Numbered from the stretch's first letter, positions 19,583 to 63,105 are shown. The stretch: 64,000 bases of DNA from an uncultured Flavobacteriaceae bacterium (GCA_963768325.1 CAVYIL010000005.1:44172-108171), one strand, 5' to 3'. The notes: a model not told the origin generated them from the letters alone. Made by a program: numbers and translations.

Positions 19583-20038
19583 TCAAAGTTTTTCTATCTC
19601 GTCTATGAGATCAATTTTTCTAAGTCGTGAATATTCTTTTATGAATTTTCCGTTCCCCGATGTTACATAGTCAAACATAGAAAATATATGTTCAACAGGA
19701 TATAGGTCTTCGCCATCATGTCCCCATTGCCAAACATCGTCCCATATTAAGAAAGGGTTATCTCTTTTGAACCCCGCCAATCTTTGCCTTAAATTTGTTG
19801 ATGGTATAATCCTCTTAGATATAGAAAATTTTTTGAACTTATGAAATTTTCCTTTCTCAATTATTCTGTTTAGAACATAATCAGAAAGTCTTATATTTGT
19901 AACAACCATAACAACATTAGGATAGTGTTGTATAAACTTGTCTATACAATGTTCTGTTTTACCCGATTGTCTTCCACCAAAAAAGTATTTATCTCCCTCA
20001 CCTATTATTTTAGGTTTAGGGAACTTAGAAGGGGTCAT
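19583..20038 (-). CDS. Small P-loop protein resembling the ATPase core of terminase large subunit
   Basis: GGRQSGKT Walker A (T4 gp17 has SRQLGKT), LIWDD Walker-B-like; about 151 aa from ATG 20038; ends IDEIEKL. Confidence 0.55.
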   Translation of the reverse strand: MTPSKFPKPKIIGEGDKYFFGGRQSGKTEHCIDKFIQHYPNVVMVVTNIRLSDYVLNRIIEKGKFHKFKKFSISKRIIPSTNLRQRLAGFKRDNPFLIWDDVWQWGHDGEDLYPVEHIFSMFDYVTSGNGKFIKEYSRLRKIDLIDEIEKL

Positions 20039-20039
20039 A

Positions 20040-20625
20040 CTAATTACCTGTGCTACCAAAACCCCCGACTCCACGAACAGTATCATCTAAATCTTCCACA
20101 ACCTTGACACCAAACGTTGGTACGGCATGGAAAACCATTTGGGCAATTTTGTCTCCTAGTTCTATTTTAATTTTTTCTTTAGATGTATTAAATACAAGAA
20201 CCTTAACCTCCCCTCTATAATTATCATCAATGACCCCTGCCATAATGTGCAATCCTTTTTTAAATGCGTTCCCCGATCTATCTAATATCTGTCCATAATA
20301 ACCTATGGGGATTGCCATGGAAACTCCAGTTGAAACTAAAACCCTTTCTCCCGATTTTAGTGTGTATGATTCATTACTGAACATGTCCCATCCTGCATCA
20401 CTAACATGTGCTTTCTCTGGAACCTTTGCATTTGGTGTTAGCAGTTTTATTTTAAGAGTAGTTCGGTTCTCATGTAAAGATGATACTGCTTCATTATCTA
20501 GGGTCGTTTGCAAACAACTAGAACATAAAAATGAATCTGCATAAGTATATGCTCCTGTAGTTCCGCAACCATCACACGCCGTTTCGGGGTGCAATACAAA
20601 ATCTTCTCTTTCGTTAGTATCCATA
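20040..20625 (-). CDS. dut: dUTPase with an N-terminal CxxC..CxxC extension
   Basis: DAGWDM, RSGNA, GVIDDNYRGEV, IAQMV, RGVGGFGSTG. Confidence 0.95.
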
Positions 20626-20626
20626 T

Positions 20627-21106
20627 TTACCTCGGAACGAAAATCCACCCAAGCATCCGTACTGCCAACCAATAAAGACCTGCTAGTTTAAATTTTCTTT
20701 TTTTCAATTCATTATAAAATATTTTATCTGCTTGTTTCCTAGTATATGGGCATACCTTATAATATAACATTTGATACAAAGCATCATGTATCATAGATGC
20801 ATAGTATGCCACAGGTTTTCCTATCGTTACATCTATCACACCATCGGGAGTTCCAACCCAAAACAAATCACATATAGAAATGTTGGGAGAACATCCGTTC
20901 CATGAATATCCTTGAAGGATATCAATAGTACCATCTTTCTCTATACTTATCCATAACTGTCCGTTTTTATCCATCCAATTTATTGCGTATTTTCCTTTCG
21001 GGAGTTCTATAGGAATTTTTGTTTCGTATGTAAAATCTCTTTCTAATTTATATCTCCATCTAGACATTGTAACCATCCATATTTTTATTTGCCTTATCTT
21101 CGGCAC
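20627..21106 (-). CDS. DUF1353-like protein
   Basis: GYSWNGCSP, ASMIHDALYQ, RKQADKIF, YWLAVRMLG. Confidence 0.75.
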   Translation of the reverse strand: MPKIRQIKIWMVTMSRWRYKLERDFTYETKIPIELPKGKYAINWMDKNGQLWISIEKDGTIDILQGYSWNGCSPNISICDLFWVGTPDGVIDVTIGKPVAYYASMIHDALYQMLYYKVCPYTRKQADKIFYNELKKRKFKLAGLYWLAVRMLGWIFVPR

Positions 21107-21428
21107 GTTTTACCTTTTCAGTTGCTTTACGATATCCTTCATCGTTTCTATTTGATAATTGATCATTAATTGCCAATTCCTTATCCAACTTCGATCTCCA
21201 ATCATGACCACCACCTAAACCAGCACCTGTCCATCCCACACCTTTATACTGTACAGGAACTGCAATGTCAAAGCAATTTGCCATAGTACCTTTCTTCTTA
21301 CAATTTGGACATTCATATTTCTTTTTTCTATTTTCATATTCCTTAAGCGTTATAAAAGACCATTCCTCTTTAAAACCGCAACACGAACACATAACATTAT
21401 AAGTCATAAATTTCTCCTTCCATTTCAT
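21060..21428 (-). CDS. FmdB-family zinc-ribbon protein
   Basis: MTYNVMCSCCG...CPNC...VQYKGVGW. Confidence 0.75.
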   Translation of the reverse strand: MKWKEKFMTYNVMCSCCGFKEEWSFITLKEYENRKKKYECPNCKKKGTMANCFDIAVPVQYKGVGWTGAGLGGGHDWRSKLDKELAINDQLSNRNDEGYRKATEKVKRAEDKANKNMDGYNV

Positions 21429-21858
21429 TTATATTTATATTTTCATTTTCAAGTATATTTAATTCAAGTTCTAGTACTGATATAAAATAGTCACAATTAA
21501 AATCTTTTTCTACTTCATTTTCTTCTAATACTGATCCACCAAACACACAACAGATACCCTCTTTCTCCATTTTGTTTGCACAATTAGGACATGATTTTAT
21601 CATTAACAGTTTCCTTTTTGAATTCCACCCTTTTTCTATCTTTTCCTTTTACATCTACTAAATCAAGTATAGGTTTCTTTTTCTTTAACCACTTGATATA
21701 TTGTTTACTTGTTATCGGTGCTTTATCAACATGATCTAACCTTGAACATCTAACATCTTCTATTTTTATGTCAGGACAAGGTTCGTTAAATAAATATTGC
21801 AATTCAAAAACCCTATTGCAATTCCTACAGTAATAAAATCCTTTCATATATTCGTTCA

Positions 21859-22896: not shown

Positions 22897-23343
22897 ACTA
22901 AGATTATACTATGAATAGGTTTCTAGATCAACTTATTTAATCTTTTTTATCTTTTGTAATGCTTCATTAAGAGCATCAAATGCTATGTGACCTGCTGATT
23001 CCATCATTCGATTCATTGAAAGGTCAATAGCACTTTTTAAAATATTTATAATTTTTTCCTGTCGTGCAATCTCTTTTTCTTGATCTGCCAATACTTTTTC
23101 TAGTTCTTCCATTATTCATTCCTCCGTTATATATATTTATAGTTTTTCATAAGTCTTCTATACTCTTAAACAACCTTTTCTTTTTTATCTCGGCAAGTTC
23201 TTTTACTGCTTCGTGATATTTCTTATTCATCTTTTCTGCAAATAACATATCCGCTTTGAATGTCCACCATCGGTTTATTATGTCCTCGTACTGTTCATTT
23301 TCTTCAATGAACTTTGATAGTTTTTTAATTCTATATCGGTGTT

Positions 23344-24622
23344 TCACACTTCCCTCTTTCCTTCATAGATGTGTTTTACTGTAGGAAACCTTAAACTTAG
23401 TCCACCTTTTTCATTTTGTGACTCTTCAAAAAATTGAACAGTAATTTCTTTTCCCACAATCTTTTTTGGATCTTTAAAAAAATCTTTCCGTTGCTGAAGG
23501 GAAAATCCCGAAACCTACGGACACTTCATATCCTTTGTGTTCAATAACAACCGCAGTAAGGGTTTTTATCTGTTTTCGATCACCATCCTCTACGACTTGA
23601 AACAATCCTGTTTCAATACTTTTTACAACATACTCAGCATCTTTAAACTTTTTTACTTTGAGTAAATCGTTTGACCTCTTTCCTTTGTACACATCGTCTT
23701 TGCGGAGAATGAGTCCTTCCCACCCATTTTCCAATGCTTTTGATTGTAGGTCTGAAAAGGTTTGATCGTTTAGTTTAACTTGATCAAGTACATCTACTGT
23801 TTTACATTTGTATTGACTAAAAACAAGTTTCAATACTGCCAACCTTTCACTAAGAATTCGTTCTGATGTTTTTGATTCAAACTCTTTTATAGTCAAACAA
23901 TCAAACACTTTATACTTAGGATTAGGAATAGTAAAATCTTTTTTCTTGTAGACTTTCATAATGGAAGTGAAATCTTCTTTTCCATTCTCGTCTACTATAC
24001 ATAGTTCACCATCGAACACAAAGTCACCCTTAATTTTTTTGAGATCCTCCTTTAATACATCGAGAGTCAAGAACTCTTTTCCTTTTCGGGAATAGAAGTT
24101 TATGGTATTACCTTTCTTTATAGTAACACACCGTAACCCATCTAGTTTATGCGATCCGTAGAATTCTGTTATATCAACTTTCCCTGCTACCTTATCATAG
24201 GAGTTCGCAAGTGCAACATCAAAGGTCGGGATTAATCCCTTAAACACCTTGTTGATGTTTGATACACCCATACCTATACGCAAGTCTTTATCAATAATTC
24301 GGAGTATGATGTCTTCATACTTTTTGTTGTTCGCAATAAAACCATTCACAACACCGATTGCCTTGTGACCTGTTATCTTTCTGCTTTCAAGATCATTAAG
24401 CAATTGAAATATAGTAAAATTAGTCGAAACATTCTCTTTAAGATTTTTCATTTTTTCTATATTTGCTGATGTTACATTGTACTGTTTGAAGTCACTATAG
24501 ATATATTCTAATATCTTTTTACAATGCGGATATCCACCTAGAATCTTCATCTTTTCGTTTGATGAATTAGTCCTGTTAATATCTCCTAGTAGTTCTGCTA
24601 CTTCTTTTAATGTATTGCTCAT
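23344..24622 (-). CDS. gp30: ATP-dependent DNA ligase (indel near 23510)
   Basis: KLDGLRC, FDGEL, GWEGLILRK, RSNDLLKVK; OB domain VGSGFS..SLRFPTVK continues in another frame to 23344. Confidence 0.93.
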
Positions 24623-24819
24623 AATATCTCCTTAATGTGTTCCATCTACCAATGAAATGCCATGTTTAATTCCGTCTATAAAATCCTCTTTAGACCATCC
24701 ATCTTTATTTTTTAAAAACTTTGCTAGGATATATCCAATTTCATTTCCAACATCTCCTATATCATAAAACGATTTTTCTTTTAAAAAATCTTCTGTGTCT
24801 TTTTTTAAATTTTTAAATT

Positions 24820-25185
24820 TCATAATATGATCAAGTTTTCCTCTTTATTAATTTTTAAAAACCATTTAATTGTGTTCTCAGTTCCACCCTTTCTATCGGG
24901 AGCAACAAGTGCCAACAATACATCACAATTTTCTGCTACCCTCATATTCCTAGCAAAATATGATTGAACTATTTTGTAGTAAGGAACATTGCTATCAAGA
25001 TTAGGAAGAAATTCTTCAAACGGAATATTCAGTTGGTGAGCAATGGTTTCTGCAAAAGCATCCGCACCAACAGGACATCCACCCGACACAATTTTATCGG
25101 GATTGAGTTCGTGGACTTTGTCCAAGATAAGTTCAATGTCTTTCATCGAATTTCTTTTGCGTGAACCAACAATTCCTAGTATCAT
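24820..25185 (-). CDS. SLOG-family (DprA/YspA-like) protein
   Basis: GIVGSR, IVSGGCPVGADAFA, FARNMRVAENCD, GGTENT. Confidence 0.8.
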   Translation of the reverse strand: MILGIVGSRKRNSMKDIELILDKVHELNPDKIVSGGCPVGADAFAETIAHQLNIPFEEFLPNLDSNVPYYKIVQSYFARNMRVAENCDVLLALVAPDRKGGTENTIKWFLKINKEENLIIL

Positions 25186-25880
25186 AATTCTTCCTCTATT
25201 GCTATCAATCTGTCACCTTTAAATTCAAATGAACTTGCTATATGACCGATATCTAAAATAGTTTTTTCGTCTGCCCATCCTAGTACGGTATCAGAGGAGT
25301 CCCATGCATCGTCACTTATTTTGGTTAAATTACCTTTACGATCTAACACCGCAATCTCTGCATTTATACATGATTTTTTCTCAAGAATCACCCTAGGAAT
25401 ACCTTCTTTATTATTACAATAATTAATATTTCCTATCTGTATTGAAAGTGAGAATCCATTTCTGAATTTGACATGCCACCCATATCTTGCGTACAGAGAT
25501 GAAGGGAAATCGTCCTCACATATAGTAACATCTACTACAGGAAGTTTTTCTTTTAAAGAATCTATGAACTCTTGATTAATCATAATTTATTTATTTCCTT
25601 CAAAATATTTTTTGGGCAACGTCCATGGTCTATATCTTTTTCATAAAATATCCATCGACTACTTTCTCTCGTTTTAAATATGAATCCCCATTCATCGGGA
25701 TAACCATAATCATAATAGGATCTAGAATATATTTTTGTTATAGTTAAAATCTTATTTTTATAGATATCCATACCACCACCAGGATTCCACCCATCGGGAG
25801 AAAGATCTATTAAATCATCATATTTCTTTATACGAACTCTATCACCGACTTTGTATTTCATTTTAATTCCTTCAATTGAT

Positions 25881-26376: not shown

Positions 26377-27380
26377 TTTGGTATAAGTAATTTTACCATG
26401 GATTCAATGGTCAGATCAAGTTTTTTTGAGTTTTTTTGAAATAGTCAAAATAGTGTATTGATGTTCAATTGAACATTTGACTAATTGAACAGTTGACTAT
26501 TTGTCTTCGATTTCCTGTATTTGTGCTAGTTTAATTGCCTTGCGTTCATCCTTATCAATTTTATTAAACCTAATTGACCAAGATCGTACATCCCTATAAT
26601 GTTCTAGTTCTTTTAAACATTTTCTTAGTTTCTCCAACTTATCCTTCTTTAGGTCTTCATCCCCCGACAAATCTGTATTAAACATGGGACTAGGTTCTAT
26701 CTTTTTTATTTCCTTCATTATTTTTCGATACGTTTTATTTTCGTTTCTAGAAAGTTTACTTAAATCCTTTTCTTCTATCCCCTTTACTCCCTGTCCATTT
26801 AAGTATAAGTCAGATAAATATTCTTTACAACTATATAACAAATTACCAACAGGGCAATCTTTGCACCCACCATCATAATCATCATAGGTATGGCATACGT
26901 TACAATAATTATCCATTAGGTCAATTAGAGTTTTTAACATTGTGATCTCGTAACACACATATCCGAATGGGGAGTGCAATGACATTATAATTCTTCCTCA
27001 ATGGTATTTATCCTTTCAAGTCTTAGTCTTTTTCTTCTTTCTTTATCTGTTTCAGTTCTCCATCCATACTGAAAATTGAACATATTTGCCCACTTTCTTA
27101 ATTCTTTTTTTGGTGTGTGCCAAGACCCTCGTACTTCGTATATACCCCTTTGCCGTTGAGGTTTTCTATACATATAAGTAACAAACCATTCTTTGAATTC
27201 TTTTTCTTGTTCTTGTGTCCAAGTATAATTATGTTGCCAACCATCCGCAAGAAAATCTATTTGATTAACATCAGCACCAACCATTTCACACATGTGAGTT
27301 AGTATTTCGACTAAGTATTTATATTCTTCTGATTCAAATTTTTTATTGATCATATCTTTTTGCTTGTTTAAAATATTTAT

Positions 27381-28310
27381 TCATAATTCTTCAACTGCCC
27401 TTAATACTTTTTCCTTTTCTGTTTTAACATACTTATGTTCAACTTTCTTTTCCTTGAAATGTTTTCTACATTCAAACTTGTATGCACAAAAACTATTACA
27501 ACGACTACCTTCTTTTCCAAATTCATGAAAATCTACTTCTTCATAACAAGGTTTTTCTGGTCCACCTTTTTGTAATGCCATTTGTACTGCATCATGCTTG
27601 TACTGATAAATATTCATTACATCTTCTCTTTTAAGAATAGGAACAGGAACTGAATAACATTGTCGTGTCAATCCATACCTAGTGGGGGTAGAGGTTTTCG
27701 ACCAATCAATAAAAACATAATCTAACCACAGTTCATCTATGATCTTTCCAGGATTTTTATCTTCATAAAATATTTTGTATCTGTTCAATTGTAATACATA
27801 ATCATCATCACCTTTCAACTTAGTTCCCTTTTGATCTATTAAATATCTCTTAATAGGTTTTCGACCTTTTACTGGATTAGGAATTTCTTTATACTCTAGA
27901 ATATAAGATGCTGATGATATTCTCTTAGTCTTAATATCTCTCATTACTGTTTTACCATCTTCTTCAAGAATAACATCACAAGTTCCTGTATTAAGATCGT
28001 CTTCAAAATATGTTTCTGATTTTAATTTTTCATCTGTACTCTCATGCTTCATGTGTGATAGAGTTCCTATCATTGAATACATGTTGTCAATAGGTTCAAC
28101 ACACCCTTTAGTCTTTAGTCGCATCCAATTATAGCATACAGGATTAAGTGCTTCTGTTACTGATAATTTTTCCAAATTTGGAGTTCGTTGTCTTACATAC
28201 ATACTCTTCAAAGCAGTATAAGGAACACAACGAGTCCCTAATCGGCATTTATTTAAGCAATCTTTACAACTTATTATTTTTTTATCGGAACACTGGAATT
28301 CGTTAATCAT
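27381..28310 (-). CDS. Cas4-like PD-(D/E)XK exonuclease with Cys cluster
   Basis: GTLSH, GTCDVI..RDIKT, LQLNRY, C-terminal CNSFCAYKFEC. Confidence 0.75.
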   Translation of the reverse strand: MINEFQCSDKKIISCKDCLNKCRLGTRCVPYTALKSMYVRQRTPNLEKLSVTEALNPVCYNWMRLKTKGCVEPIDNMYSMIGTLSHMKHESTDEKLKSETYFEDDLNTGTCDVILEEDGKTVMRDIKTKRISSASYILEYKEIPNPVKGRKPIKRYLIDQKGTKLKGDDDYVLQLNRYKIFYEDKNPGKIIDELWLDYVFIDWSKTSTPTRYGLTRQCYSVPVPILKREDVMNIYQYKHDAVQMALQKGGPEKPCYEEVDFHEFGKEGSRCNSFCAYKFECRKHFKEKKVEHKYVKTEKEKVLRAVEEL

Positions 28311-28391
28311 TTTATAATCCTTTATAGTGATTGTGACTATTTAATATTTATCACTAAGAAATTATACAATGAATTTCGTTTTAGATCAAGT

Positions 28392-43459: not shown

Positions 43460-44509
43460 GTCATACCCTAAAACAAAGAAGTTTCTTTTTTAGGTCTTCC
43501 CCTTCTTTTCTTTTTAGGTTCATCATCATCTCCACCGACAACATCACCATTCTTGTCTTTTTCAACAAAAATATTATATGGTTTCCAATTTGGATCAACA
43601 GGTTCATCCTTCGGAGCATACTGATTTTCTCGCATAGCAGTTGCCATTTCAATGACTTCTTTTTTCTTTAAATCAAAACAATCAATATCTTTTGATTCTT
43701 TTATAGTACCATCAATATTTCTATATATTTCCTTATCGTGTATAAGGTTATACCTATTGCGTTGCCCCTTTACAGAAACAACATCTATAAAAGAATCTTT
43801 AAATTCCTTTATTGACAATGCCCATGTCATGGGTTTAAGATCATTGGGTTTCTTAACTGCTTCAAATATATCTCCACTCATATTTTTTCTATCTCCTTCA
43901 ATGTTTTGGTTTTATCCCTACTGACTTTTGGATTGTCCGAAAGGGGGAATTCTAATCCTGTTTCAACAATTTCAAATTCCTTTATTATAATTTTATCTAA
44001 ATCTTTTTCATGTATTCCTCTATAAGAACCATACGTTCTCAGTTGATGTTTACATTGGTTCATCCAATTCTTTATCCCACCTATACCATGATAGGTTTTT
44101 CTAAATGGTTTTCCATCTAGAAACATCTGATATAATTTTGTGGACTTTCCCCTACCTAATGATACTGCCATGTTGCCTACAAAATATTTTTAACAATATA
44201 CAGTACATTAAAAAATAGGAAGATTCCTATTATAATCAGTACACCGAGTTTTACTTTATTATCATTTTTTTCTAAAAACTTTTTTGGTTTTTTCTTCCTA
44301 GTCATAATTTTTCTACCTCTTTACATATAGTTAATTTATCAATTCTTTTTTCTAATTTTTCTACCTTCTTTAGAAGTTTATCATATTCTTCTCTTGAGAC
44401 ACTATCGTCTTTCCATACTAAATCCGATGCAGATACTACATCGGAAAGTCCCGTACCTTTACCTGTACCGTTTGATATCGTGATAAACCCACCATCGATC
44501 TTATGATTA

Positions 44510-46010
44510 TTAGAATGTTGCATTTTTTAAATTCCCACCTTTTTTCTTTTTATCATCTTTTTTTCTAGTCGCAGGGTTCGGATCAAAAACAGTTCCCTTC
44601 AAATTCTTCCCTGCTTTTTTTCCTATTGCTTTTCCGTCCCTATTATCTAAATTCTTTGCCTTACCATCCATAGACCCATCGGCATTTTCTGTTACCAATC
44701 CGTCCCTTGGATCTTCTATCTCATAAAGTCTTTGACTATCTTTATCAACACCCATCAAAAACTTTTGGAGTTCGTGGATCGACCTTGGAGTACCTACTCT
44801 TGAGTACCTTAAACAAATACTTGTTCTTTCATTTTAAGATCATCTGTTTCAATAATCCCTAGCACGAAGTCGGCAGTATGAACAGTACCAAAACTTTCTG
44901 ATACATCATTCAATTCCATATTGGAAGAACCATTTTGATCCCGACCTGTTTGGGTTGCCGTGAATATACCAATGTTTTTTTCAACTGCAAGTCCTCTGAA
45001 CTCCTCTACTATTCCTTTCACATATAGATAGGAATTAGATGCATCTTTGTAACGGATGCTTGCAAAGATGTTCAAATAGTCAAGGAAAATGAAGTCGGGT
45101 TTGAAGTTCTCTCGTATCTCTAGATTCGTCTAACAATGCCCTAACATGTAATACATTAGCAGTTGCCGTAGGATATTGTTTTATAATTAATCGTCCCTCT
45201 GACCTTCCCATATAATCTTTTAATTTAGTAACATAATTATCTTTGGTGATTTTATCAAGATGCTCTGTACTAGTTTGTAAGATGTTACCATCGAAACGTT
45301 CTTTTAATTCTTCTTCTGATATTTCTGCTGACAGGTACAAACAATTTTGACCTGCTTTGAGATACTGTTCTGCTATTGCTTCAAGGCAAAGTGTTTTACC
45401 CACATTAGTCCCTGCCTGTATGACTATTATATGTTTCTTCTTGAACCCACCACGAGTCACTTCATTAAAAGTCGCAAAGTCGGGCATGGGGAACTGCTTA
45501 TCTTTATGATGGTAATAGTAGAATTGATCCTCTATTGATTTCTGAGTGCCATATGCATCCCCTATGGTATTTTTAAAGGATAGTTTCAAGGCATCCCTAA
45601 ACATATCGGGCAATTCTGATTTCCGTATCCTCTTATCTTCTCCACCTAGCATAGAAGCAGCCTTCATAACGGTCTTCTCTAAAACAACTTCTTGAAACCT
45701 ATGTTCAGTAGTATCTACTAAGTAGTCAAGAGTCATTGGTTCAATCGTGCTTTCTTTTATTTCACCCAAGGCATCGATAGTCTTATCAACTATATCGTTA
45801 TCTAATTTCCGATCTTTGGTTAGTTCTATTAGAACGGTGTCGTATGTTGGCAGGTTCTTTATACTTCCCAACGAACTCCTCATACTTTGTTACAATGACT
45901 TTTGACAATGTATCATCGAAGTATTTCTTGTTCAGAAATGGTGATACCTTTTTGGCATAATCTTTATTCTCGAATAAATTTTTAATGATTATTTCTTCTA
46001 TTTGTTCCAA
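44510..46010 (-). CDS. gp41: Replicative helicase (T4 gp41), split into four ORFs by indels
   Basis: KKVSPFLNKKYF, AGTNVGKT, LIIKQYPT, EEFRGLAVE, TATQTGR, SESFG..TADF, GVDKDSQRLY. Confidence 0.93.
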
Positions 46011-46060: not shown

Positions 46061-48443
46061 TCAAATTTTCTCCAACATTTTCAATTTAATTTGTTTTTCT
46101 GTGGGATAACCATTTTCTTCTAACGCATCTAATTCCTCATCACTAATTAGTGCCTTTCTAACTGCCCACTTAGTCATGAATATAGTTATAAAGGGAACTA
46201 TAATAAATCCTAATAGACATAAACAATACTCACATAAGATCCAAAAAATATGTCTCAGTATTTGTTTTAATACCTGTGATTTTTTATATATTGCTCGATG
46301 TTTCAAAACTTCTTTAACTTTATCCTTAAAATACCGAAAGTCATTAACCATAGAGTCGGAAGTTGCTTTGCTCCACGATCTAATAAATGGAAATTTCAAA
46401 AATGTTCTGTTCATAGATTTTCTACCTCTTTTATAGTTTCCATTTTCTTTAAATAATTTTGTGCCCACCATTGGAATTCATCCCAACTCACACATTTTCC
46501 GTTGAAGGGACAATCGGGATGTTGTGAACATTCAGATTGTCCACAGAAACCCCTACTAAGTAAACAACAAGTATTTACTTCAATAGCATCTTTTGCAATT
46601 TCTTCTTTTGTAAATCTTTTGTATTTCATAATTCCTCTATTGCATTAAGCAGTTTTCTTTTCTTTAGAACTTCTTTTGCCCACACTTTCATGTCGGATAT
46701 AAGACATCCTAATACACGATAGTATCCTGTATTTGCTTTGACCCATCTTTGATATTCACATATTTGGGGTTTCTGTTCACATTTGAAATTAAACATCGAA
46801 CTATCAGTTCTTTCCTTAAAGCAAGGACACCCAATAAACTGCGGTTTCTTCCTAGCAAGTTTCTTTAACATATTTATGCTGAACAATTTCATAGTTTTTC
46901 TATTGCCTGTATTGTCTTTAGTTGTTCTTTTTTAAAAATTTTATTGATGTGTTTCATTCTCCACTCCTCTACAGAACCTTCAAACCGATGATAGATGCAA
47001 GTATAATCTTTACAAACAGGTATCATTTTTTTAATATTGCTTGTCAACAAAGGACATTCTTCACATTCAATATAGGAGCAATCACCATTTTGTTTTATAA
47101 GTCGCTTCAATATAGTCTTTTGTTTCTTAGTCATAGTTCTATTTCTTCAACACATCCGATGCTTTCTTATATTTACTCATGTAATCTCTTGCTATCTTCT
47201 TTGCTATATATTCATTACAACCCCTTCTAGTAAGGTGTTTGCCGTTTCGTGACTTGTTTAATAACTGTTGTACCAAACAATGCTTGCAGTTGAAATCAAC
47301 TTGATCAATAAAGTCAGAGTCACAAAATCCCTTCTCACATATCCGCATCATAATCAAATGTCTTTTTATTCTTATATCTTTCATAGTCTTTTAATTTCCT
47401 TGAACAATTCTTCACGTTCCTTTAATAACTTTTCTGCTAGTGTAAGTCTGAACATTCTATCTAGAGTATCACAAAAATCACAGAATGTAGTACAACACTC
47501 CGCAGATCCGTTACACGAACCATCTCCGTTTTCAAGAAGATGTTTTGCAACTTGTATCTTGTTTTTAAAATGTATGTAATAACTATCATTCCTCTTCATA
47601 ACTTGTTGATCTCCTTTAACATTTCATTTTTACTTTTCTTATATTGGTGTTGCACAAAAAACCAAATCCAATCACAAATACCCATCTGTTCAAAATTAGA
47701 TAACAATAACCAATCCAAATTTTCAGATCCGAATTCGGAATCTAAATATTTGCTTATTTCATAAGTACGGAAGAAGTCCATAACACTAACTTGTGATTTT
47801 TGTGATACTCTATTAACAAATTTTGAAATGGGGCAATCCGCACAATTCATCAATGAATTACAATTGATATGATATGAACTGCTTGCCGACCTTTTCATAA
47901 GGTTAATATCTTTTGCAGTACAAACTATTTTTTCTGCTTTCATAGTTCCTCTATCATAGTTAATAACAGATTCTTGTTTTCTCATGTATTTTAACATAGC
48001 AACACAGGCGTTGTGTGAATATTTTTGTAGGAATTTGTTACTATCATAATAATTAGCAAGATGAGAATATCCCTTTTTTATAGAGAAGATCTGCAAAGGA
48101 CATGAATCACAATCTTCACATGGAAAAACAGATTCCCTGTTATTAAGATTATCAAGAGTTGTTATTTTTAAGTCACTAAGTTTATATTTTTTACTCATAT
48201 TAATTCAAGTTCCTTTAACAGTTCTTCTTTTTTAAGTTTTTTGTAAAAGAATACACAAGGGGAATATCCATATTTTGTAAAACAATCTCCACCGTAGTTT
48301 TCTGTATAGTATTCACCAACGGACATTCCGCATGGTGGTAACAATCCTATGGGACATTCTTCACAACAATCAATCCCACAGCAATTTATATCAACATCAC
48401 CATTAATATGTAGTTCTAATTTTAAATCGGAAAGTTTTTTCAT
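46061..48443 (-). CDS. Array of small, mostly Cys-rich ORFs with a shared C-terminal motif (8 ORFs)
   Basis: ORF track; CxxCP motifs; ends such as KEVENL, NAIEEL, QAIEKL, KEIKRL, KEINKL, KELELI; ATGA overlaps. Confidence 0.75.
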
Positions 48444-48571: not shown

Positions 48572-49697
48572 TTACGAAAAACCTTTAATTTTTCCGAAGA
48601 TTCCTTTGAAGGGTCGGAGAAAATCTTTGATCTTCTCATTCTTCTTGATATCAGATACTACAATCTGGGCATCTTCATCAATGAGGAAGTTCAGATATGC
48701 AACCTGTTCGTCTTCATCGAGAGTCTTAACAAAGGATGCAACATTTGAGAGTTGCTTTTTGTTAAGTTTTTTCACCTCAAACTTTTTGAGTTCGTTGAGG
48801 ATATCAGATTTGCGATCCCTGTTAAACTTCGCAACCGCATCTTTGTGCTTTGCGTAGTCGTTAATGATGTCATTAACGTTCAGAGTGGAAAGGTCACGTA
48901 GATAAGATTGGAATTTGGTAACGGTAGTTCCGATGTAAGAGAGACCCATTTGGGTTACGAAAGACATGTAGTCGGCAGGAGATGCACCCTTGCCATAAAT
49001 GCTAACGATGGAATCAGAAAGGAAAGTCCACGTTCGGGGGGAAGCATAAGCACCTGTTTGAACAACACCCTCTTTTTCTGCTTTGATACGATTGAAATGT
49101 TGCGGATTTGCTTCTATGAAGGAAACAATTTCGGGAATTACATTTTCCCTAGCAAAGTTGTCCACCCATTCGGGGATGGTAAGTTCATATTTGTAATGGA
49201 TCAAACGACCGTTGAGTGCGGTGTCGAATTCTTCAACTTCAGTTCCGTCTTCGTCACCGAGGTTGCCGAGTGCAACCATGTACACATTTTCGTTGAAATT
49301 AAAGGTAGAACCGATCTGCCTTTCATTAAGAATCTGCAAGGCAGCGTTACGAACAGGCAGGAGTGCCCTGTTAATTTCGTCAAAAACGATCAGAGTCGGT
49401 TTCTTGTTTGCTTCTACGGCATACTGCGGAACGGCATAGTACATAACGTCTACACCATCAATTTCTTTGGTTTTCGGCATACCTGCCACTTCGGTTTCGT
49501 CCATCTGACCGAGTCGGATGTTCAACGAGATTCCAATTTTCTTTTTTTGCAATTTGTTGGAACATTGCGGTTTTACCGATTCCTGGAGCACCCTTGATGT
49601 ATAAGACACCCGATTGTGCTTTGAGTATAGCAGTAAAAATATCTGCTTTGTTGTCGAGATTAACTCCCTTGATAACTTCTGTTTTTGTTTTCGGCAT
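48572..49697 (-). CDS. MoxR/dynein-related AAA+ ATPase (one indel near 49530)
   Basis: GAPGIGKT, IVFDEINRA, VALGN, DTALNGR, SPRTW. Confidence 0.9.
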
Positions 49698-49742
49698 ATT
49701 GATTTTCTCCAATCTTTATTGTTTGTTTATATGTTGTGACAT

Positions 49743-49905
49743 ATTTTACCATGGAAAAGGGGTTGAGATCAAATTTTTTTGCAATTTTTTTAAAAAAGTG
49801 AAAAAATGCAAATTTGGGCACTTTTTGCCCCCATTTGCAATATTGCTCAAAATATGTGAAATATGTGAAATCTGCTCAAAATTACCGAAAAATCGTGAAT
49901 TTACA
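49743..49905 (-). promoter_or_regulatory. Strong promoter TTGATC-N15-TGG-TAAAAT with AT-rich UP element; related copies at 53855-54000 and 26390-26440
   Basis: Near-identical -35, extended -10 and A-tracts upstream of the AAA, vWA and ClpS genes. Confidence 0.8.
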
Positions 49906-49938: not shown

Positions 49939-52286
49939 TCATAACTTTTCAATCTCCTCATGCAGTAATTCTTTTAGTTTACGTTTCATTATCTCTGTAG
50001 TTTTTTCCCATGAATTGAATGGACAAGATAACGTATCATTGTAGAAACATCCTTCACAAGGTACAGAACATCCACCTGTTTGATCCATTTCAAAAAGAAG
50101 TTTGTTTATAGTTTGGTCTTCCGATTCTTTTTTCATAACTGTTCAATCTCATTGATTTTCTTTTGTTTCTCCAAGTAAAAATATTCTTGTGTGGATTTTG
50201 TACATGGACCAGGACATTGCCCTTTTTTGGTATTATGTTTGTATCCACACGATTGATATTTTTTATACAGTTTATATATAGGACAATCTTGACACCTATC
50301 ATATCCATTCGATAAAGCACCATTGCATGAATCGTGTTCATGCAAATATTTTAACAGGTTATAACGACTTGTTTTCATAATTCCTCGATTTCATCAAACA
50401 ATTGTAGTCTTTCTTTCAATAATTTTTTTGCTGTTTTAACAAGTTCCGATTCTTCACACCTATCACATCTAAGTTTACATTTGTTTCTTCCACCAATAAC
50501 ATGACAATTAAGTCCATGAACCAAACCACCCTTGCACCTTCCATCCTTTTTAATTATAGATTTATAAAATTCTATAGTATTTATTTTCATAATTCCTCTA
50601 TTGCTTTTAGTAAATTTTGTTTTTTATCTTTGTGATTATAATACCATAATATGATTCCACAACTTGACCAATTTCCACTATCTTCATAAGGTACTTCTTC
50701 GGTGTACCGAATAAACGATTCAAATGAAAAAATACAACTGATATTATGATGCTCAACGTTATGTTTTTTTAAATTATCTTTAGAATATCTTCTAACAGGA
50801 CACTCATCAGAACATGACATAAACTTTCCTTTCAACGAAAAGGGACATCTGTGTATAGTTCCATATTCGTTATTGGAATGAACACGTATAGAAATTTTCT
50901 TGTTTGAAAGGGGAGCAGGAACGTCTTTAATCATAGATCCTCTATTTCTTCTATTGCTTTCAGTTTGAAATATCGTGGGGTAGATTCTTCAAGTTTTTCT
51001 ACAAACTCTTTGCACCACCGCAACCGTTCAGAGGTTATCTGCTTAACCATTTTTATTGCTGATATTTTATCGTGCTTATAGAAACTGTAACCATGCCGAT
51101 ATATTATAGTGGAAAAAATTTTAGTAGTATTATTTTTCCTTAAATAATGTACCAATTCTTCAAACTGTTCTGTTTTAAATTGATCATAATACTGTGTCCG
51201 TTTTTCCCATGTAAAATCCCTTTTATTTGGATACCATAAGGTCTTAACAAATTGATCCGCAACCCCTTCACTATCAATAGAAAAAAGAGAACAACAAAAT
51301 TCAGACTTGACTTTAACGGCAAGTTCAAGTTCAAGTTCTTTTGCTAAATGAAGGCACTTCCCTTCATCACTTCTATTATTACAGTTCTTACAGGTTATCA
51401 TAGACTCTCTATTTCCTTTAAAACCTTTTCTTTAAGATAATTTTTAAAAAATAAATATCTTTCAGCACAACTTGGCAAAAAGTCATTTTCTTTTCTGTCA
51501 ATCAATTTAAAGAAATTACGAAAAAATATAGGACATTCATTACAATCAATACCATCACAACTCATACCTTCACCATATTCATCTTTTACCAATCTTAAAT
51601 TTTTTAGTGGAATATAACGATCTATTTTATTAGAGTTCATTTTCTATTTTGTCCAATAGTTTTTGTTTTCTTTCCTTGCGTATCATATAAACTGCCTTTG
51701 CACAGTTTGACCACTTTCCGTTGAGTCGTTCGGGAAGTTCGATATCACTAGTTTCCAAAATTTGATTCACATAAGAACTAATTGAACTCAATCCATTACT
51801 AATTTCAAGATCGTTCTCTTTTAGTTTTCTAGAACACCATTTTCTAACTTCACATCTATCAGTACAGACCCGATTAGCAGTATTGAAAAAACTACAATCA
51901 TCAGAATTAATAACGATCATCCCACTTCCATATAGAGAGTATTTCATCTTTAATTTTTTGTCTTTTATCTTTTTCATGATTTCCTTCAATGTGCCAAAGT
52001 GTGGAGTCGAACCACCGAGCATTATTATTTTTGCTCACCGAGTCGGGATACCTTACGATATACCTTCATTGGCATTACTTACTTTTTTAAGAATGTCTTC
52101 ATTTTCAATAAGAATTTCTATTGTTGCTATAAAAGCAAGAAAATCACATCCGAAAAGTTCTTTTGCTTTTTTGTTCTTTTGCTTTTTTGTTTCATTTTCA
52201 AATAGTGATATGACATTTTCCCCACCATTTTCTTTTACATAAATAGCAATTTTCTTAACTGAATCTAAAATTTTGTTCTTTTTCAT
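49939..52286 (-). CDS. Second array of small ORFs, mostly Cys-rich with the shared C-terminal motif; 50931-51401 contains a ribosomal L7/L12-CTD-like segment
   Basis: Ends EEIEKL, NEIEQL, DEIEEL, KAIEEL, EEIEDL, KEIESL, KIENEL; KISAIKMVKQIT..CKEFVE. Confidence 0.75.
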
Positions 52287-52335: not shown

Positions 52336-53819
52336 TTAATATTCCGCATCGGGGTCGATCAGCACCTGTTTCAGTTTTCCGTTGCTTGCGGTGATAGGAC
52401 ATTCATCCCCTTGAGAGAGAATCAGTACCCTTTTCTTTAACCTAGAAAGGTCAAGAGAATCACACCAACCATCGGTAAGGATAACAGTTGCGTATTTATT
52501 GTATTTTTCTACAATGTAGTCAAGAGAGGGTTGAAGTTCAGTTCCACCCATCCCTTTAATCATCATTTTCTTAAACTGATTTTTGTTTTTAACAGTACCC
52601 ATATCGTGAACCTTAGTATCACATTGGATCATGTTAATTTCAATATCGTTCTGAAAAACATAGGCAAGGATTTTTTCAAAATACCCACCCATTGATCCAC
52701 TAGTATCAAGCATAACGTTGATACAGGAAGATTGTTTTTTAAAACCTTTGAAAGGAAGACCCTTGCGGTTTGCCTTTGCCCAAGTTTTATTCTTGTTCTG
52801 ACCTTTGAGGTGAGAAATACCTTTCTTGATTTCTTTCAGATAATCTTTCCGTTTTTTGCGGAGTTGACCGAGTACTGATTCAAAATCACCATCACCAAGT
52901 CCACGTGCTTTGATACGTTCAATCATATCTTTTTGCATCTGTTTTTTCAATTCAGCAGGAACTTCATCATCGAGGTGAGTGTCAATAGTTGCTTGACCGT
53001 TACCTTGTTTTTCCTGTTCTGCATGGTCGAGTACACTATCAAGATCATGACAATCGATATCATCAGCACCGTTTTTTCCGTAGGAATCTTTTTTGTTTTT
53101 TTGACCGTTTCCACTTCCGTTGCCTTTCTGATCACCCTCTTGAGGTTCTCCGTTGCCTTGTCCTTGACCGTTGCCTTTCTGATCACCCTCTTGAGGTTCT
53201 CCGTTGCCTTGTCCTTGTCCTTGCTGACCTTGTTGTCCTTGCTGACCTTGTTGTCCTTGCTGACCTTGTTGTCCTTGCTGACCTTGCTTTTCTTTATTGC
53301 GTTTTTCTTGTTGTTCACTCAACCAATCATACAGGTGTTCAAAGGTTTTAGGGCCTTTGTATTCTTTGGGAATAAATAATGCGGTATGTTGACCCTTTTC
53401 ATTAACAGGGATGGTAACAGGAAATTTAGGATCAGTTCCGTGCTTGCGTACAATCTCATTTACGATTATGGTATTGATGATCATGTCTTGAGCAATATTT
53501 GATAGTTGCCTATCATAATTCTTTGTAGTTCTTGCACAATGATCGAAGATAAGGTGAAAAATTTCATGAATAGCAATAAAGTTTACTTCGGATTGTTTTA
53601 ATCCATCAGTAAATGCTTTATTATAGTAGAAGTTAAAACCAGTGGGAGAAACATTGACACCCATTGTAGGCACTTTGTCGGTTCGTGGAAATTTGTTGCT
53701 AAAAATACTTCTGAATAATATGGGAATTTAAAAAGTAACCCACTAGAACATTCCGATAACTTCTCATGTATTTTTTGAAGTAAGTTTCTAGGTATTGGGC
53801 ATACACTCATTTGATCCAT
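52336..53819 (-). CDS. HExxH metallopeptidase-like + vWA domain protein (DUF2201-type MoxR partner), one indel
   Basis: PTMGV, IHEIFH, NIAQDMIIN, Q/G-rich linker, LDTSGSM, GGTEL, ILTDG. Confidence 0.9.
53110..53287 (-). repeat. Coding repeats in the vWA-gene linker: (QGQ)n and two copies of GQGNGEPQEGDQKGN
   Basis: Tandem 18-nt units and a duplicated segment visible in the DNA. Confidence 0.9.
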
Positions 53820-54015
53820 ATTTTCCTCTCTTTGTTTTTTAATAGGTGAGACCTATTTTACCATGAAAATGCTATTCAGATCAAATTTTTTTGGAATTTT
53901 TTTAAAAAAGTGAAATTTGCTGAATTCTGCCCAAATTTCACATATTTCGCATATTTGGACAGAATTCGAATTATCGGCAAAATCTGCTCAAAATTGCCGA
54001 TTATTCATACATTAC

Positions 54016-57932: not shown

Positions 57933-58263
57933 ACCTGTTTATTGCATCCAATTTATATTTTTTATTTACATTCTTTAATCGTAAATCTATTGATAAGTAA
58001 CTACTTTGGTTCACCATAATTACATCATGACCGTATAACTTATCGTTCTTTCCGTCTTTCACAACATATTTCATTGCATCTGATTTTAATAATTCGTAGT
58101 ATTCTTCTCTACCAACATAAATGACCACATCAAAATCTGTATTCAATTTAGTGTTAATAGTATAAGTTCCTTCTAATTCGTATAGTCTATCCAATATGAT
58201 ATCCACTATGGAATATCTATTCTTTTCCTTCATAGATAATTATATAATGAACTTGATTTTAAA

Positions 58264-59394
58264 TCAAATATTTTCTACTTCCTTCGATGCATCTTTGACT
58301 CTTTTCCTATCAGCAAGATAAAACTTATCTTTGTTATAGTCTTTAATTAATACGGTTTCCTGTTTAAATTCAATGGTGACTTCTATTCCCAAAAGTAATA
58401 GAACCTCTGATGGTACACCTGCTATTTCGATGCTTGTGGATTTCTCGTTATAGACCTTGCCATTATCACCTATGTACCTTCCCTTGAAAAAGTTTCCAAC
58501 GGAAAATGCACCAATGAAATAGTCTTCTATATCACCATGTTCTTTGTTATGTTTCTGAATTAGGTTAGCAAGTTTCTTGTTCTTTTTAATACGATTAACC
58601 ATAGTGTCCATCTTATTGGAAAAAAAACTTTTTACTTTTCCTAATACTCCCTTTTGATCATTTACTGCATTTACATCTGTAGAGAAAACAATTATGCCAC
58701 CCTTGTATTTTGATAATCCGTATTGTTGTTTTGCTACTGCTTCATCTAGACCAAAGATAGTTCTTTGATCCTCGTCAGACGTGTCAAACTTCTGTTCATT
58801 AAGACTTACTGCTCTCCACCATTGTCCCTTCGCATATCCTGGTGCATCGGGACAATTGTTTTTCCCATCGGGAGATAACCTTTTTATTTCTTTTAGTTTC
58901 ATAATCGGTTGCATCCGATATTAATTTTATTGTTTTTAATTGTTTAAAATACTCGTGAAAACTCATTGGTTTTTCTCCTACTTTTTCTTTTCGTGTTTTT
59001 TGTACACTTTGAAATATTTTTCGTCTTGAACTTTTATATCCAAGTTAGGCATCTTGCCCTTTATAACACTAGCAATATTGTTGGCAGAACCACCACCACT
59101 ATATTTAATAGGTTTTTCTATAGATCCCGATATCCTGCTATCGAATGTGGGGTTGCCGTCAACTAAGATAACAAAATCCCATTTTCCAATATCTACTGCG
59201 GTTATTTTAACTTTATTTTTCTTCTCTATTTCTTTTAACAAATTAAAAGCAATTGCTCCAAATGTTCCTTTAAGGTTTTCTGAACCTTCAAAAGGTTTTG
59301 CATTTTTATATTGTGCTGACATTCCCAACACATTCCCAAATGCTTGTTTTAATTGTTCATCTGATTTTTCTTTTAAGTAGTCTTTAAAACTCAT
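58264..59394 (-). CDS. Two hypothetical late proteins: MSFKDYLKE (58978-59394) and MSFHEY.. (58264-58966, with indel)
   Basis: ORF track and manual translation; promoters at 59416-59451. Confidence 0.6.
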
Positions 59395-59455
59395 TTTATA
59401 ATGCCCCTGTATTAGTATTTATATTATAGGATGAAATCTATTACAGATCAAGTTT

Positions 59456-60971: not shown

Positions 60972-61697
60972 CTTGCTACCCTCTGTGAGGTCTTACAAGG
61001 TTATTTATAGAAATTGTGTGTTCGACTTTGTCAATCATATACTTTTATGCGTTCCATTGGAAGTTTGACTCATAATCATATCCATATTTATTTTCTATCA
61101 TATCATAAAGATCCAATAAAAATTGTTCATCTACTGTTGTTCGATTAATATTACAAAACATTACAGAATCTTCGGGAACGGATATTTCAAATTCAAAGTC
61201 TATCATTTTCAAATCAGATTCTGGTCCGATAAAAGTTCCTGTGTATGGTCTGAATCCAGGTTCTACATCATCCAATTCATTCTCTCCCCAAAAATATTCA
61301 GAAAAATCTTGACTTAAATCTTTATAAATACCATAATCTTGATCACAATCAATTAAACAAAAATACTGTGGTACAGTATCTGTTGTTCTACTCCATAGTC
61401 TATATGGTATGCTTTGTGTTGTTAAAGTTTTTGTTATTCCTATTCTATCTATTGGCATAAAATTTCCTTATAGTTATTTATAAATTATCTATCTCTTTTA
61501 AAACTAACTTTCTCATAATAGTTTTAGCAAAATCTTCAAACTCAACATCTGTTATTAATCCATCTTCAGTATTCTTCATTATATGATCATATAGTTTACA
61601 ACAGGCATATCTTTTATTACAAGAAAATTTGCGGTAGTAACATTCCTCACATCGGTCTTCGCAATCACCTTCTTTTTTAATAATGTATTCAAGAGTT

Positions 61698-61886
61698 TCA
61701 ATTTTGTTCATCTATATTTTTCTTGGTTTCTTTTTCTAATAAATCGGTTAAATCATGTACCGAATACACCGAAGTCAAATCTTTTTGCGATTCCAATGTC
61801 CATTTTGTTCTCAACTTTCTAACCTTTGCGGTAATAGGAATACTAGTGATAGTAATATCGGGAGTCGGAAATCTGCATACTCTCAT
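61698..61886 (-). CDS. Mini protein carrying the gp23 segment AK(S)RKLK..W(T/S)..E..QDL
   Basis: MRVCR..ITAKVRKLRTKWTLESQKDLTSVYS vs T4 gp23 IEAKSRQLKAAYSIELAQDLRAVHG. Confidence 0.75.
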   Translation of the reverse strand: MRVCRFPTPDITITSIPITAKVRKLRTKWTLESQKDLTSVYSVHDLTDLLEKETKKNIDEQN

Positions 61887-62050
61887 TTCTTTTTCTTTTT
61901 TGGTTTTACATATTTATATTTTAATGCAAAAACAAATCCCGATGGTTGGGACATAGGTTGTACTCCAACAATCTGGTTTGCGATCATGCTAGGATATGCC
62001 CTTCTAAATGCAGGAAGAATTGTCCGTAGTACAGGTTTACAAACTCTCAT
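61883..62050 (-). CDS. 55-aa mini protein carrying the gp23 Gol-peptide segment
   Basis: Not in ORF track: MRVCKPVLRTILPAFRRAYPSMIANQIVGVQPMSQPSGFVFALKYKYVKPKKKKK; ATGA overlaps at both ends. Confidence 0.85.
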   Translation of the reverse strand: MRVCKPVLRTILPAFRRAYPSMIANQIVGVQPMSQPSGFVFALKYKYVKPKKKKK

Positions 62051-62139
62051 GGCAAATTGGTAACTTTAATTTTCTTTATGTACAATGGGATATATGGTGA
62101 CCATATATACTTACTCATAGGATCTCTACAAACTCTCAT
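62047..62139 (-). CDS. 30-aa mini protein carrying a gp23 C-terminal-like Y.PY(I/V)PL segment
   Basis: Not in ORF track: MRVCRDPMSKYIWSPYIPLYIKKIKVTNLP; ATGA overlaps at both ends. Confidence 0.65.
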   Translation of the reverse strand: MRVCRDPMSKYIWSPYIPLYIKKIKVTNLP

Positions 62140-62691
62140 ATCTTTTCTATTGCTTCTATTTTTTCTTGCTTCTGTCGTTTCTTATAGTGGTCACATTCCT
62201 TGTGTATATACTTTCCTTTTTTTCCTCGTCTATCTAGATCAACACAATCATAACATTCACTTTCCATTTCACTATCATAATCGGGATCGCATACAACTAA
62301 CCATTTTTCTTCATTTATATAATCTTTTGATTCATCGTCCAATACTAGGTTGGAATATTTAGGATGTTTGGTATTGATCTTAAATCTGTACGGACAAGAT
62401 CCAACTTTTCTTTTACAGTTATTCATAGTTTTTCTATCTCATTTAGTTTATCATTTTTATCGTGGTAAAAAATTATAACCTTAGTTCTATTATCCACACC
62501 TGTTAATTTTTGTTCGGTGATCCAGTTTCCATATTGGTCATTTCCACTCCATGGAGTGTACATATTTTCGGCATAATTACAAACATCTACTTTTATTATT
62601 TCAACGGATGGTTGTGTTTCTAACCAAGAATTTATAGTATATTCTATATTAGTTCCAACACCATTATCGTCAAATATTTTACACTTCATTT

Positions 62692-63105
62692 TTACTGACC
62701 ATTTCGGAACTTCTGCCACTCAATATAAGATTTAATATTCCAAGCAAGTCCCTTCTGCTCTGCGGTTATCACTTCCATTTCCTTTAACTCTAACGAGATT
62801 TCATCATAGAGTTCTTGTGCTTTAACCACTTCATCATCCCTGTCTATAAATGCTTGCAGTTCTTTTTCATTGTCGGGCACTACATCATGCTCATGTGCAT
62901 AATATATTCTTTTGTCGGCACGAACCTTTTCAAGATTTGTTTTTGCTTTCAACGCATCCTTTCCTAACCTAGTACACTTGACTATGTGATTAGCAACATG
63001 GATACTGTTTTGAGTAAGTTGAAGTTCAAGATTAGTGCTTTCAAATTTTAAATTCTTAAAACACTCTTGCCTAAAATCTTCTGTAATTTTAAATTGTCTT
63101 TCCAT
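62692..63105 (-). CDS. uvsY: UvsY recombination mediator
   Basis: KRIYY, FIDRDDEV, AWNIKSYIEWQKFRNG. Confidence 0.85.
   Translation of the reverse strand: MERQFKITEDFRQECFKNLKFESTNLELQLTQNSIHVANHIVKCTRLGKDALKAKTNLEKVRADKRIYYAHEHDVVPDNEKELQAFIDRDDEVVKAQELYDEISLELKEMEVITAEQKGLAWNIKSYIEWQKFRNGQ

Follow-up and report, generated by a model that had tools for sequence, protein, structure and literature searches.

Dozens of small accessory proteins of a divergent phage share a short C-terminal peptide that has the marks of a portable address label. The DNA concerned, here called the window, is a stretch of 64,000 nucleotides (C5:44172-108171) from contig C5, which is 164,317 bp long, has 33% GC and carries nearly all of its genes on the minus strand. 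Judged by its sequence, C5 belongs to a divergent T4-like phage: it encodes homologues of T4 RegA, primase, gp41, UvsX, gp44, gp43, gp46/47 and gp55, and its portal protein is only ~38% identical to those of cyanophages and Melnitz. The tag closes no fewer than 33 accessory proteins of this phage, which are small and for the most part non-late, and sequence comparison indicates that the tag is a C-terminal module that is conserved as a peptide and can be moved between proteins. Docking of the carriers on one shared partner is the likeliest role and, in our estimate, an even call.

A shared C-terminal tag on phage accessory proteins

Genes were called with a codon-usage model trained on the long open reading frames (ORFs) of the phage, which returned 300 genes on the contig, and their C-termini were scored with the strict pattern [LIVFMC]-x-[EASGTDN]-[ILV]-[EDNKQ]-x-[LI]-stop. 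The shared C-terminal tag is real and exceeds chance. A preliminary description of this DNA had listed 26 C-termini with a common ending; we re-read all of them and each ends as it had reported, with about 20 of the 26 fitting the strict pattern and the remainder being looser (IAIEEEL, NTIEEEL, IQEIEDK, DKIENEL, KMLEKI and HEEIEKL). It had also proposed that the ORF at 47139 would end in VLKEIEL once a single A was restored. A tag-like ending is recovered by 1 nt in an A-run, but the frame in question reads VLKKIEL-ATGA. Across the whole contig, the strict tag is carried by 31 of the 300 called genes and by two ORFs that the caller missed (19583 and 46411), giving 33, and approximately eight further genes carry looser variants; the tagged share is ~11% of the phage's genes. 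As had been observed earlier, the recognisable core T4 genes end differently, and their C-termini bear this out.

The consensus, K-x-x-h-L-x-(E/A)-I-E-x-L-COOH, spans 11 residues and is longer than the motif first described. I-E at positions -4/-3 is near-invariant and the free C-terminal Leu or Ile is invariant. Two positions that were not used in the selection follow the consensus as well: Lys or Arg occupies -11 in 28 of 31 tags (background 16%), and -8 is mainly hydrophobic or Lys. The strict pattern matches 31 of 300 C-termini and 74 of 44,247 internal positions, a 62-fold enrichment, and a tighter pattern matches 24 C-termini and 15 internal positions, a 236-fold enrichment. On the co-binned contigs the strict pattern is found on 14 of 9,810 ORFs and at 3 of 640 ATGA overlaps. 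The 78-kb early region of T4 served as a control that is equally AT-rich, from a phage that uses Shine-Dalgarno (SD) sequences and has RegA; there the tag is present on 0 of 145 genes, 31 ATGA overlaps included. The stop codon of the tagged gene overlaps the next start as ATGA in 25 of the 31 strict tags, and the tag is also found on 6 of the 227 genes that have no such overlap, which is 16 times the internal rate (p = 3e-6). A search of a 5.8-billion-protein set with a profile of the tag alone matched the phage's own proteins only, which is weak evidence, and in the literature searched we found no account of phage proteins that have a C-terminal motif or a targeting signal in common in this way.

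Constraint on the peptide and on the nucleic acid

A motif at the ends of overlapping genes could be read in RNA. On this account, the last codons form the initiation region of the overlapped gene, made up of an SD, an A/U-rich spacer, ATGA re-initiation and, perhaps, an operator for RegA; the peptide would arise incidentally. The frequent ATGA overlaps agree with it, as do the enrichment of GAG and AAG codons in the tag, the last codons of the TAA-terminated tags (both described below) and a RegA translational-repressor homologue on the phage (11147..11542, minus strand). The targets of T4 RegA resemble GAGGAAAUUAUGA.

The account fails on conservation and on geometry. We compared the tags with a null in which the same peptides were back-translated with genome-wide codon usage and the A forced by the ATGA overlap was kept. 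Over the last 11 codons, mean pairwise nucleotide identity is 0.592, compared with 0.583 ± 0.007 under this peptide-only null. Broken down by codon position, observed and null values are 0.547 and 0.537 at first positions, 0.741 and 0.742 at second positions, and 0.435 and 0.434 ± 0.020 at third positions; nucleotide identity is thus not above the null at any codon position, and the near-null value at third positions indicates that the synonymous sites of the tag are not conserved. The comparison of synonymous with amino-acid conservation that had been suggested as a check therefore places the constraint on the peptide. The hydrophobic positions are encoded by TTA, CTA, TTG and CTT for Leu, and by Ile, Phe and Cys codons.

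With respect to geometry, the SDs of the phage have their G peak at -12 to -8, and the Ile codon of the tag, commonly ATA, occupies -11 to -9. Because this conserved codon fills the usual place of the SD Gs, the best SD-like stretch is displaced in 24 of 25 tagged overlaps: its distance to the ATG is 2-4 nt, with GAGGAA at 2-3 nt, or else 10-12 nt, as AAGGAR, compared with 4-9 nt in untagged overlaps; SD pairing energy does not differ between tagged and untagged overlaps (p = 0.48). Further, Lys -11 and Leu -7 stand 21-33 nt upstream, with Lys/Arg at -11 sitting 33 nt upstream of the stop. T4 combines RegA with 31 early-region ATGA overlaps and has no tag, and in C5 the tag is kept where the next gene has an SD of its own and at 19583, where the gene ends CTT TGA. 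The RNA-level reading is largely refuted here, and we regard it as very unlikely. The preliminary description had raised a reusable translational-coupling or recombination junction as a competing explanation and had doubted it; given the SD geometry and the lack of synonymous conservation, the doubt was justified, as such a junction fails as the primary cause.

Two features of the nucleotide sequence count against a tag shaped by its peptide alone. First, GAG makes up 46-47% of tag Glu codons compared with 16% genome-wide, AAG 56% compared with 27%, and ATA 75% compared with 45%, so that some selection does act on the tag at the nucleotide level. The GAG and AAG excess fits a minor overlay in which a makeshift SD is squeezed into the synonymous sites; in a peptide-level tag, this weak overlay would give the overlapped downstream start some ribosome-binding sequence. 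Second, NTA is the last codon in every one of the six tags that stop at TAA. These may be recent derivatives of ATGA junctions that arose by one G-to-A change, in which case they would not be independent of the overlaps. The NTA last codon is absent from the ORFs at 19583 (CTT TGA) and 51630 (CTC TAA).

Shared gene ends could also be short homologies for shuffling gene cassettes in one phage or from phage to phage, akin to the promoter early stem-loops (PeSLs) of T4-type phages. The tagged genes do lie in plastic arrays, the last eight residues vary more than the body between orthologues (P0003: 2/8 versus 72% overall), and a few tag pairs have 19-21 identical nucleotides in common. Such pairs stand against a mean pairwise DNA identity over 45 nt of 57%, with shared runs usually of 5-9 nt, and identity shows no excess over the peptide-only expectation. 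Similarity between tags is independent of genomic distance (rho = 0.00), and local gene conversion, which we considered separately, was rejected on the same result. A PeSL is an intergenic promoter and stem-loop conserved as DNA; the tag, by contrast, lies inside coding sequence and its conservation is codon-periodic. We therefore give a cassette junction very little credence. Peptide-level selection of this kind makes the tag look like a portable address label.

Carrier proteins and the origin of their tails

All of the tagged genes in the window are on the minus strand. The preliminary description had called the bodies of these proteins unrelated, which is partly true: there are at least eight to ten body types, and approximately 13 of the tagged proteins have a common, Cys-rich body. 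When the last 12 residues are trimmed, BLASTP relates the tagged proteins in just two pairs. Visual inspection and alignment, however, show that approximately 13 of them consist of an N-terminal helix, a G-x-C...C-x2-C-P segment and a C-terminal helix. The module (helix, G-x-C-x-G-h-x-C-x-x-C-P, helix) is represented by the 81-aa protein at 46889..47134, which ends TIQAIEKL, and by about 12 paralogues, and has been expanded in this phage.

Further tagged members of the Cys-rich family lie at 47381..47599 (72 aa, ending LFKEIKRL), 48195..48443 (82 aa, LLKELELI), 49939..50136 (65 aa, LHEEIEKL), 50133..50378 (81 aa, KINEIEQL), 50375..50590 (71 aa, LFDEIEEL), 51398..51640 (80 aa, VLKEIESL) and 61478..61711 (77 aa, VLKEIDNL, with a TAA stop and an SD of its own on the next gene). 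The member at 47139..47384 has lost its tag by the 1-nt indel in an A-run mentioned above, the other frame running to ...IEL and then ATGA. A 200-aa tagged protein at 47596..48198 (MLKEINKL) contains two Cys units, and a 162-aa Cys-rich protein with a variant tag lies at 26497..26985 (QIQEIEDK, TAG stop).

The bodies of other carriers include enzyme-like, SH3-like, P-loop and membrane-like proteins. The first of these is a 309-aa protein with a Cys-rich, enzyme-like body (27381..28310) and a 14-aa tail, TEKEKVLRAVEEL; a 93-aa protein with an SH3-like start ends ILKEINKL (25580..25861), a 136-aa membrane-like protein carries the loose tag KLKMLEKI followed by ATT TGA (46061..46471), and a 73-aa coiled-coil-like protein ends ICKEVEKL (44302..44523). 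The remaining strict tags in the window are those of proteins of 167 aa (19583..20086, LIDEIEKL, last codon CTT and then TGA, without ATGA overlap), 66 aa (23147..23347, RLFKSIEDL, ATGA overlap), 97 aa (43878..44171, TLKEIEKI), 72 aa (46411..46629, TIKEVENL, ATGA), 88 aa (46626..46892, LLNAIEEL), 115 aa (50587..50934, LLKAIEEL), 156 aa (50931..51401, AIEEIEDL), 96 aa (62136..62426, KIEAIEKI) and 98 aa (62423..62719, KLNEIEKL). Variant tags end proteins of 133 aa (25182..25583, LIAIEEEL, ATGA overlap), 122 aa (26985..27353, INTIEEEL, TAA stop) and 130 aa (51630..52022, LDKIENEL, CTC TAA).

The existence of a Cys-rich family raises the possibility that the tail has no common reader and serves structure or self-association, as the last helix of small helical proteins. 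It would pack on the helix at the N-terminus or join neighbours made from the same message in short coiled coils. The likeness of the tails would then stem from descent, through the Cys-rich family and in-frame fusions in the arrays, combined with the general rules of amphipathic helices. About 13 carriers do belong to one helix/Cys knot/helix family. An AlphaFold2 (AF2) model of the 46889 protein (mean predicted local distance difference test score, pLDDT, 79) has a helix at residues 3-14, a Cys knot and a single long helix at residues 55-80, so that basic patch and tag both lie within one continuous terminal helix of 26 residues, and a/d-like hydrophobic spacing reaches upstream of the tag in several members. 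A profile of the family run against 1.8 billion representatives found external proteins that repeat the module in tandem without the strict tag. Their units end in a similar A-K-x-h-L-E-E-h helix, and two small external homologues end in the near-tags KIEEILK and KQEIERLLE. The similar helix of the external units speaks against a dedicated label, and in the Cys-rich family the C-terminal helix may be a plain part of the fold. Four of the external proteins (P0013, P0017, P0020 and P0023) are longer than the phage proteins and contain two to five module units in tandem. The external homologues matched no named family in Pfam and NCBIfam, ten tagged proteins gave nothing useful against Pfam and PHROGs, and a Foldseek search of the AF2 model against the PDB returned no match.

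We consider a structural helix alone an unlikely alternative. The same tail is found on the other kinds of body listed above. Generic packing needs neither a fixed distance from the C-terminus nor a near-invariant I-E at -4/-3, and the tags are uniform although the bodies have diverged past recognition by BLAST. Finally, in two families the tail follows a conserved body and is missing from distant homologues. Orthologues of the 309-aa protein that are 76% and 72% identical end VLDEVEKL and SLKEIDKL, keeping the hydrophobic positions and changing the polar ones, whereas a 47% orthologue stops after a conserved HKY, 14 residues earlier, without the tail. In a family of 69-aa proteins, the body is conserved as far as ...FYVEDDAL.K.L and the tails of the homologues all differ, the tag-like tail being found in this phage's copy only. 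By these alignments, the tail is a portable appendage that is gained or lost as a unit in two protein families.

As a helix, the tag has a hydrophobic moment of 0.48, compared with 0.31 for other C-termini. In the mechanism that we favour, this amphipathic helix would fold upon binding and dock its carriers onto one partner. Positions -8/-7, -4 and -1 would form its hydrophobic face, and specificity would come from Glu -3 together with the terminal carboxylate.

Expression, candidate readers and phage context

We examined the promoters of the tagged genes. T4-type late promoters (TATAAATA) are strand-biased in C5, with 66 on one strand and 11 on the other, and one is present within 80 nt upstream of 34 of 256 untagged genes but of none of the 31 strict-tagged genes. 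A sigma70-like, non-late class, TTGATCT-N~17-TATAAT or CCATGGTAAAAT, has 14 sites on the gene strand as opposed to 3 on the complementary strand, and drives replication genes as well. Among the tagged genes, 18 of 31 have a sigma70-like promoter as the closest one upstream, compared with 49 of 256 untagged ones. With no late promoters and an excess of sigma70-like ones, the tagged genes are mainly early or middle genes. The non-late class has two sub-types, TTGATCT(G/A)A..TTCAT..TATAAT and the same with CCATGGTAAAAT at its end, the latter preceding the VWA-peptidase and AAA genes discussed below and other tagged runs. Sites are at 53855-53884, 49743-49772, 28361-28389, 26390-26419, 22903-22931, 15018-15046 and 59423-59451; of these, the minus-strand site at 28361..28389 (TTGATCT-N-TATAAT) lies upstream of the tagged gene at 27381.

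Small, non-late carriers with an invariant free C-terminal Leu or Ile would also suit a degron or timer, by which early proteins would be removed in a co-ordinated way by a host protease of the ClpXP, Lon or FtsH type, or a cap that protects against C-terminal recognition. The ClpX signal of the MuA type likewise has a basic patch ahead of a hydrophobic C-terminus. To our knowledge, however, bacterial C-degrons such as LAA and RRKKAI do not have acidic residues at -3/-2. The preliminary description had named a ClpS-like adaptor in the window as a possible reader. We found no ClpS or other adaptor on the phage contig, and PF02617 has a single match in the assembly, on the bacterial contig C232. 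A degron is in our view improbable.

The other reader proposed at that stage was a pair formed by a MoxR-type AAA+ ATPase and a VWA-peptidase within the densest array of tagged genes, and here one half proved solid. The gene at 52336..53673 (minus strand) encodes a zincin metallopeptidase with a VWA-like domain, matching DUF2201_N (1.9e-12) and DUF2201 (4.5e-9) above cut-off, and has intact HExxH (HEIFH, residue 36) and MIDAS-like (metal-ion-dependent adhesion site) DxSGS motifs (DTSGS, residue 323). Between the zincin and VWA parts, residues ~120-200 form a Q/G-rich low-complexity linker with (QGQ)n and GNGEPQEGDQKGNG repeats. The second half, the candidate ATPase partner at 48572..49712 (minus strand), is less secure than had been claimed: its matches to AAA_5 (0.0015) and AAA_3 (0.014) fall below the Pfam cut-offs, and a 1-nt frameshift at an A7 run (49542-49548) separates an ORF with the Walker A motif GAPGIGKT (49458-49712) from one with the remaining AAA domain (48572-49609). 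The frameshift may stem from faulty assembly, reflect slippage or mark a pseudogene. A search of the genome for AAA_3 gave no match on C5. The AAA ORF also has a weak PDZ_3 match (E = 0.007), the sole hint of a TPR or PDZ reader.

The pair is tied to the tag by circumstantial evidence, namely shared promoters, operon layout and a parallel in huge phages. Near-identical sigma70-like promoters on the minus strand head the VWA-peptidase gene with eight tagged or variant genes (53855..53884) and the AAA gene with eight tagged genes (49743..49772, TTGATCT..CCATGGTAAAAT), and of the 48 genes that lie no more than 10 kb from the VWA gene 15 have the strict tag, compared with 16 of 252 elsewhere. VWA-peptidase homologues are present in 6 of 50,697 deposited phage records, five of which are uncultured phages of 635-735 kb. 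Two of these, LR756502 and LR745206 (635-642 kb), have a C-terminal tag of their own, which reads R-[DN]-x-K-[LI]-x-x-[LI] and closes with -GI or -ILN. This tag is carried by 14 of 74 and 10 of 73 genes near the VWA-peptidase and by 6-19% of genes, being densest beside the DUF2201 gene; in LR745206 it is on 9 of 19 genes in the 10 kb upstream of the VWA gene compared with 18 of 307 in four distant regions. In LR756502 the region covered was 582414-623730. Like the C5 tag, these tags mark 10-20% of nearby genes, form a basic amphipathic helix with the spacing [KR]-x-x-x-L-x-x-[LI] and accompany the same rare VWA-peptidase. They differ in belonging to another lineage (portal ~24% identical) and in ending -LGI or -ILN rather than -E-x-L. 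Being likewise undescribed in the literature searched, they are a parallel and not a known system.

On our analysis, the AAA+/zincin-peptidase-VWA pair is the best single candidate for the partner, although a doubtful one. If it is the partner, the pair would act on the tagged proteins in concert and on schedule, by remodelling, clipping or releasing them. It has been proposed that vWA domains capture a client peptide which MoxR then releases (PMC7159879), and in NorQD the extreme C-terminus of the VWA protein touches the MoxR AAA+ hexamer (PMC13036017). Taken further, genome-specific C-terminal helix tags might mark dozens of small early accessory proteins as clients of phage-encoded MoxR-type AAA+/zincin-VWA machines in at least two unrelated lineages of large phages, with the machine docking the Glu and the carboxylate through its MIDAS and then remodelling, activating or clipping the clients at set times; this wider scheme, which would be an undescribed system of protein addressing, is speculative and we think it unlikely as a whole. 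VWA MIDAS sites typically bind an acidic side chain or a carboxylate of a client peptide.

Several observations weigh against such a role. The ATPase half is frameshifted and below threshold, as noted; no AAA partner was found beside the VWA-peptidase in the huge phages; and two of the four huge phages with the VWA-peptidase have no clear tag nearby. The adjacency statistics overstate significance, because genes within an array do not count as independent and the choice of regions was post hoc. In T4-related jumbo phages, a MoxR protein paired with a peptidase-fused vWA protein has been assigned a proposed role in virion assembly (PMC7824862). The phage studied here resembles these MoxR/vWA pairs in having a zincin-VWA protein with intact motifs and an AAA+ gene nearby. 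It differs in that a tag-marked client set has not been described there and in that the two genes here are separated by, and co-transcribed with, tagged arrays; its AAA match is below the Pfam threshold and frameshifted.

Other systems offer looser comparisons. Within T4 biology, the documented case that comes closest is that of the internal proteins IPI-III and Alt and their capsid targeting sequence (CTS; PMC3012670). In both cases a short terminal peptide is the sole common part of diverse, fast-evolving accessory or anti-defence proteins of a T4-type phage, and the CTS, too, is portable, to foreign proteins. The C5 tag differs in its sequence, its timing and the terminus that it occupies: a CTS lies at the N-terminus, is cut off by the prohead protease at an L/I-x-E site and directs late packaging into the scaffolding core, whereas the tag is at the extreme C-terminus of proteins from non-late units. 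Many tags contain [LI]-x-E, but not all of them do, and a prohead-protease L/I-x-E site was dropped as an explanation. A better CTS analogue in C5 is a separate set of genes with MKFKDYLxE-like N-termini, as these are often near late promoters and show no overlap with the C-tagged set; its members include 3127-3333, 32413-32700, 33389-33673, 55219-55650 and 58978-59394, and many genes upstream of the window.

C-terminal docking peptides are known from the clamp-binding tails of T4 gp43, gp55 and gp33, the EEVD tails read by TPR domains, PDZ class III ligands and the cargo-loading peptides of encapsulins. Like the C5 tag, these are short C-terminal peptides with a free hydrophobic end and acidic residues that bring unrelated carriers onto one hub; none matches it in sequence. 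Docking on the sliding clamp was rejected, since the gp43 and gp55 homologues of this phage end differently, in KKKKVELW and KAKRAKK.

No part of phage genomes is understood less well than the small early proteins, which are rich in host-takeover and anti-defence functions. If the tag is read as proposed, about one tenth of the phage's proteome would be handled as a class, being docked, timed, processed or localised together, and peptide and reader would provide a single handle with which to find, pull down and switch these proteins. It would also supply a client set for the MoxR/VWA-peptidase pairs of large phages. For annotation, the tag can already serve as a mark by which genuine small genes of this phage lineage are separated from spurious ORFs.

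The host assignment of the phage is uncertain. C5 was co-binned with a Bacteroidota genome, and the bin carries 52 C-terminal domains of the type IX secretion system (T9SS). An SD core is found upstream of 47% of phage genes (G peak at -12 to -8) and of 4% of the co-binned bacterial genes, and the phage promoters are E. coli-like; either the bin is the wrong host, or the expression signals of the phage depart from its host's norm. A phage-encoded bS21, which was sought as an explanation of the SD use, was not found. Viral, metagenome and genome contigs scanned with the 309-aa protein, its alignment, P0003 and the portal gave no match, and an exact search for the junction 18-mer gave one, likely by chance. 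There was no close relative of the phage among 300 genomes of the same family and 400 of the same class; one genome in that scan (G569) had short contigs with structural genes only, whose portal identity is 33-36%.

Several core replication and recombination genes of C5 look split into adjacent ORFs, namely the gp41 helicase (two), UvsX (two) and the gp43 DNA polymerase (three). These ORFs lie at 45080-45883/44809-45075 and 54420-55118/54016-54423 in the window, and at C5 ~126978-131159 outside it.

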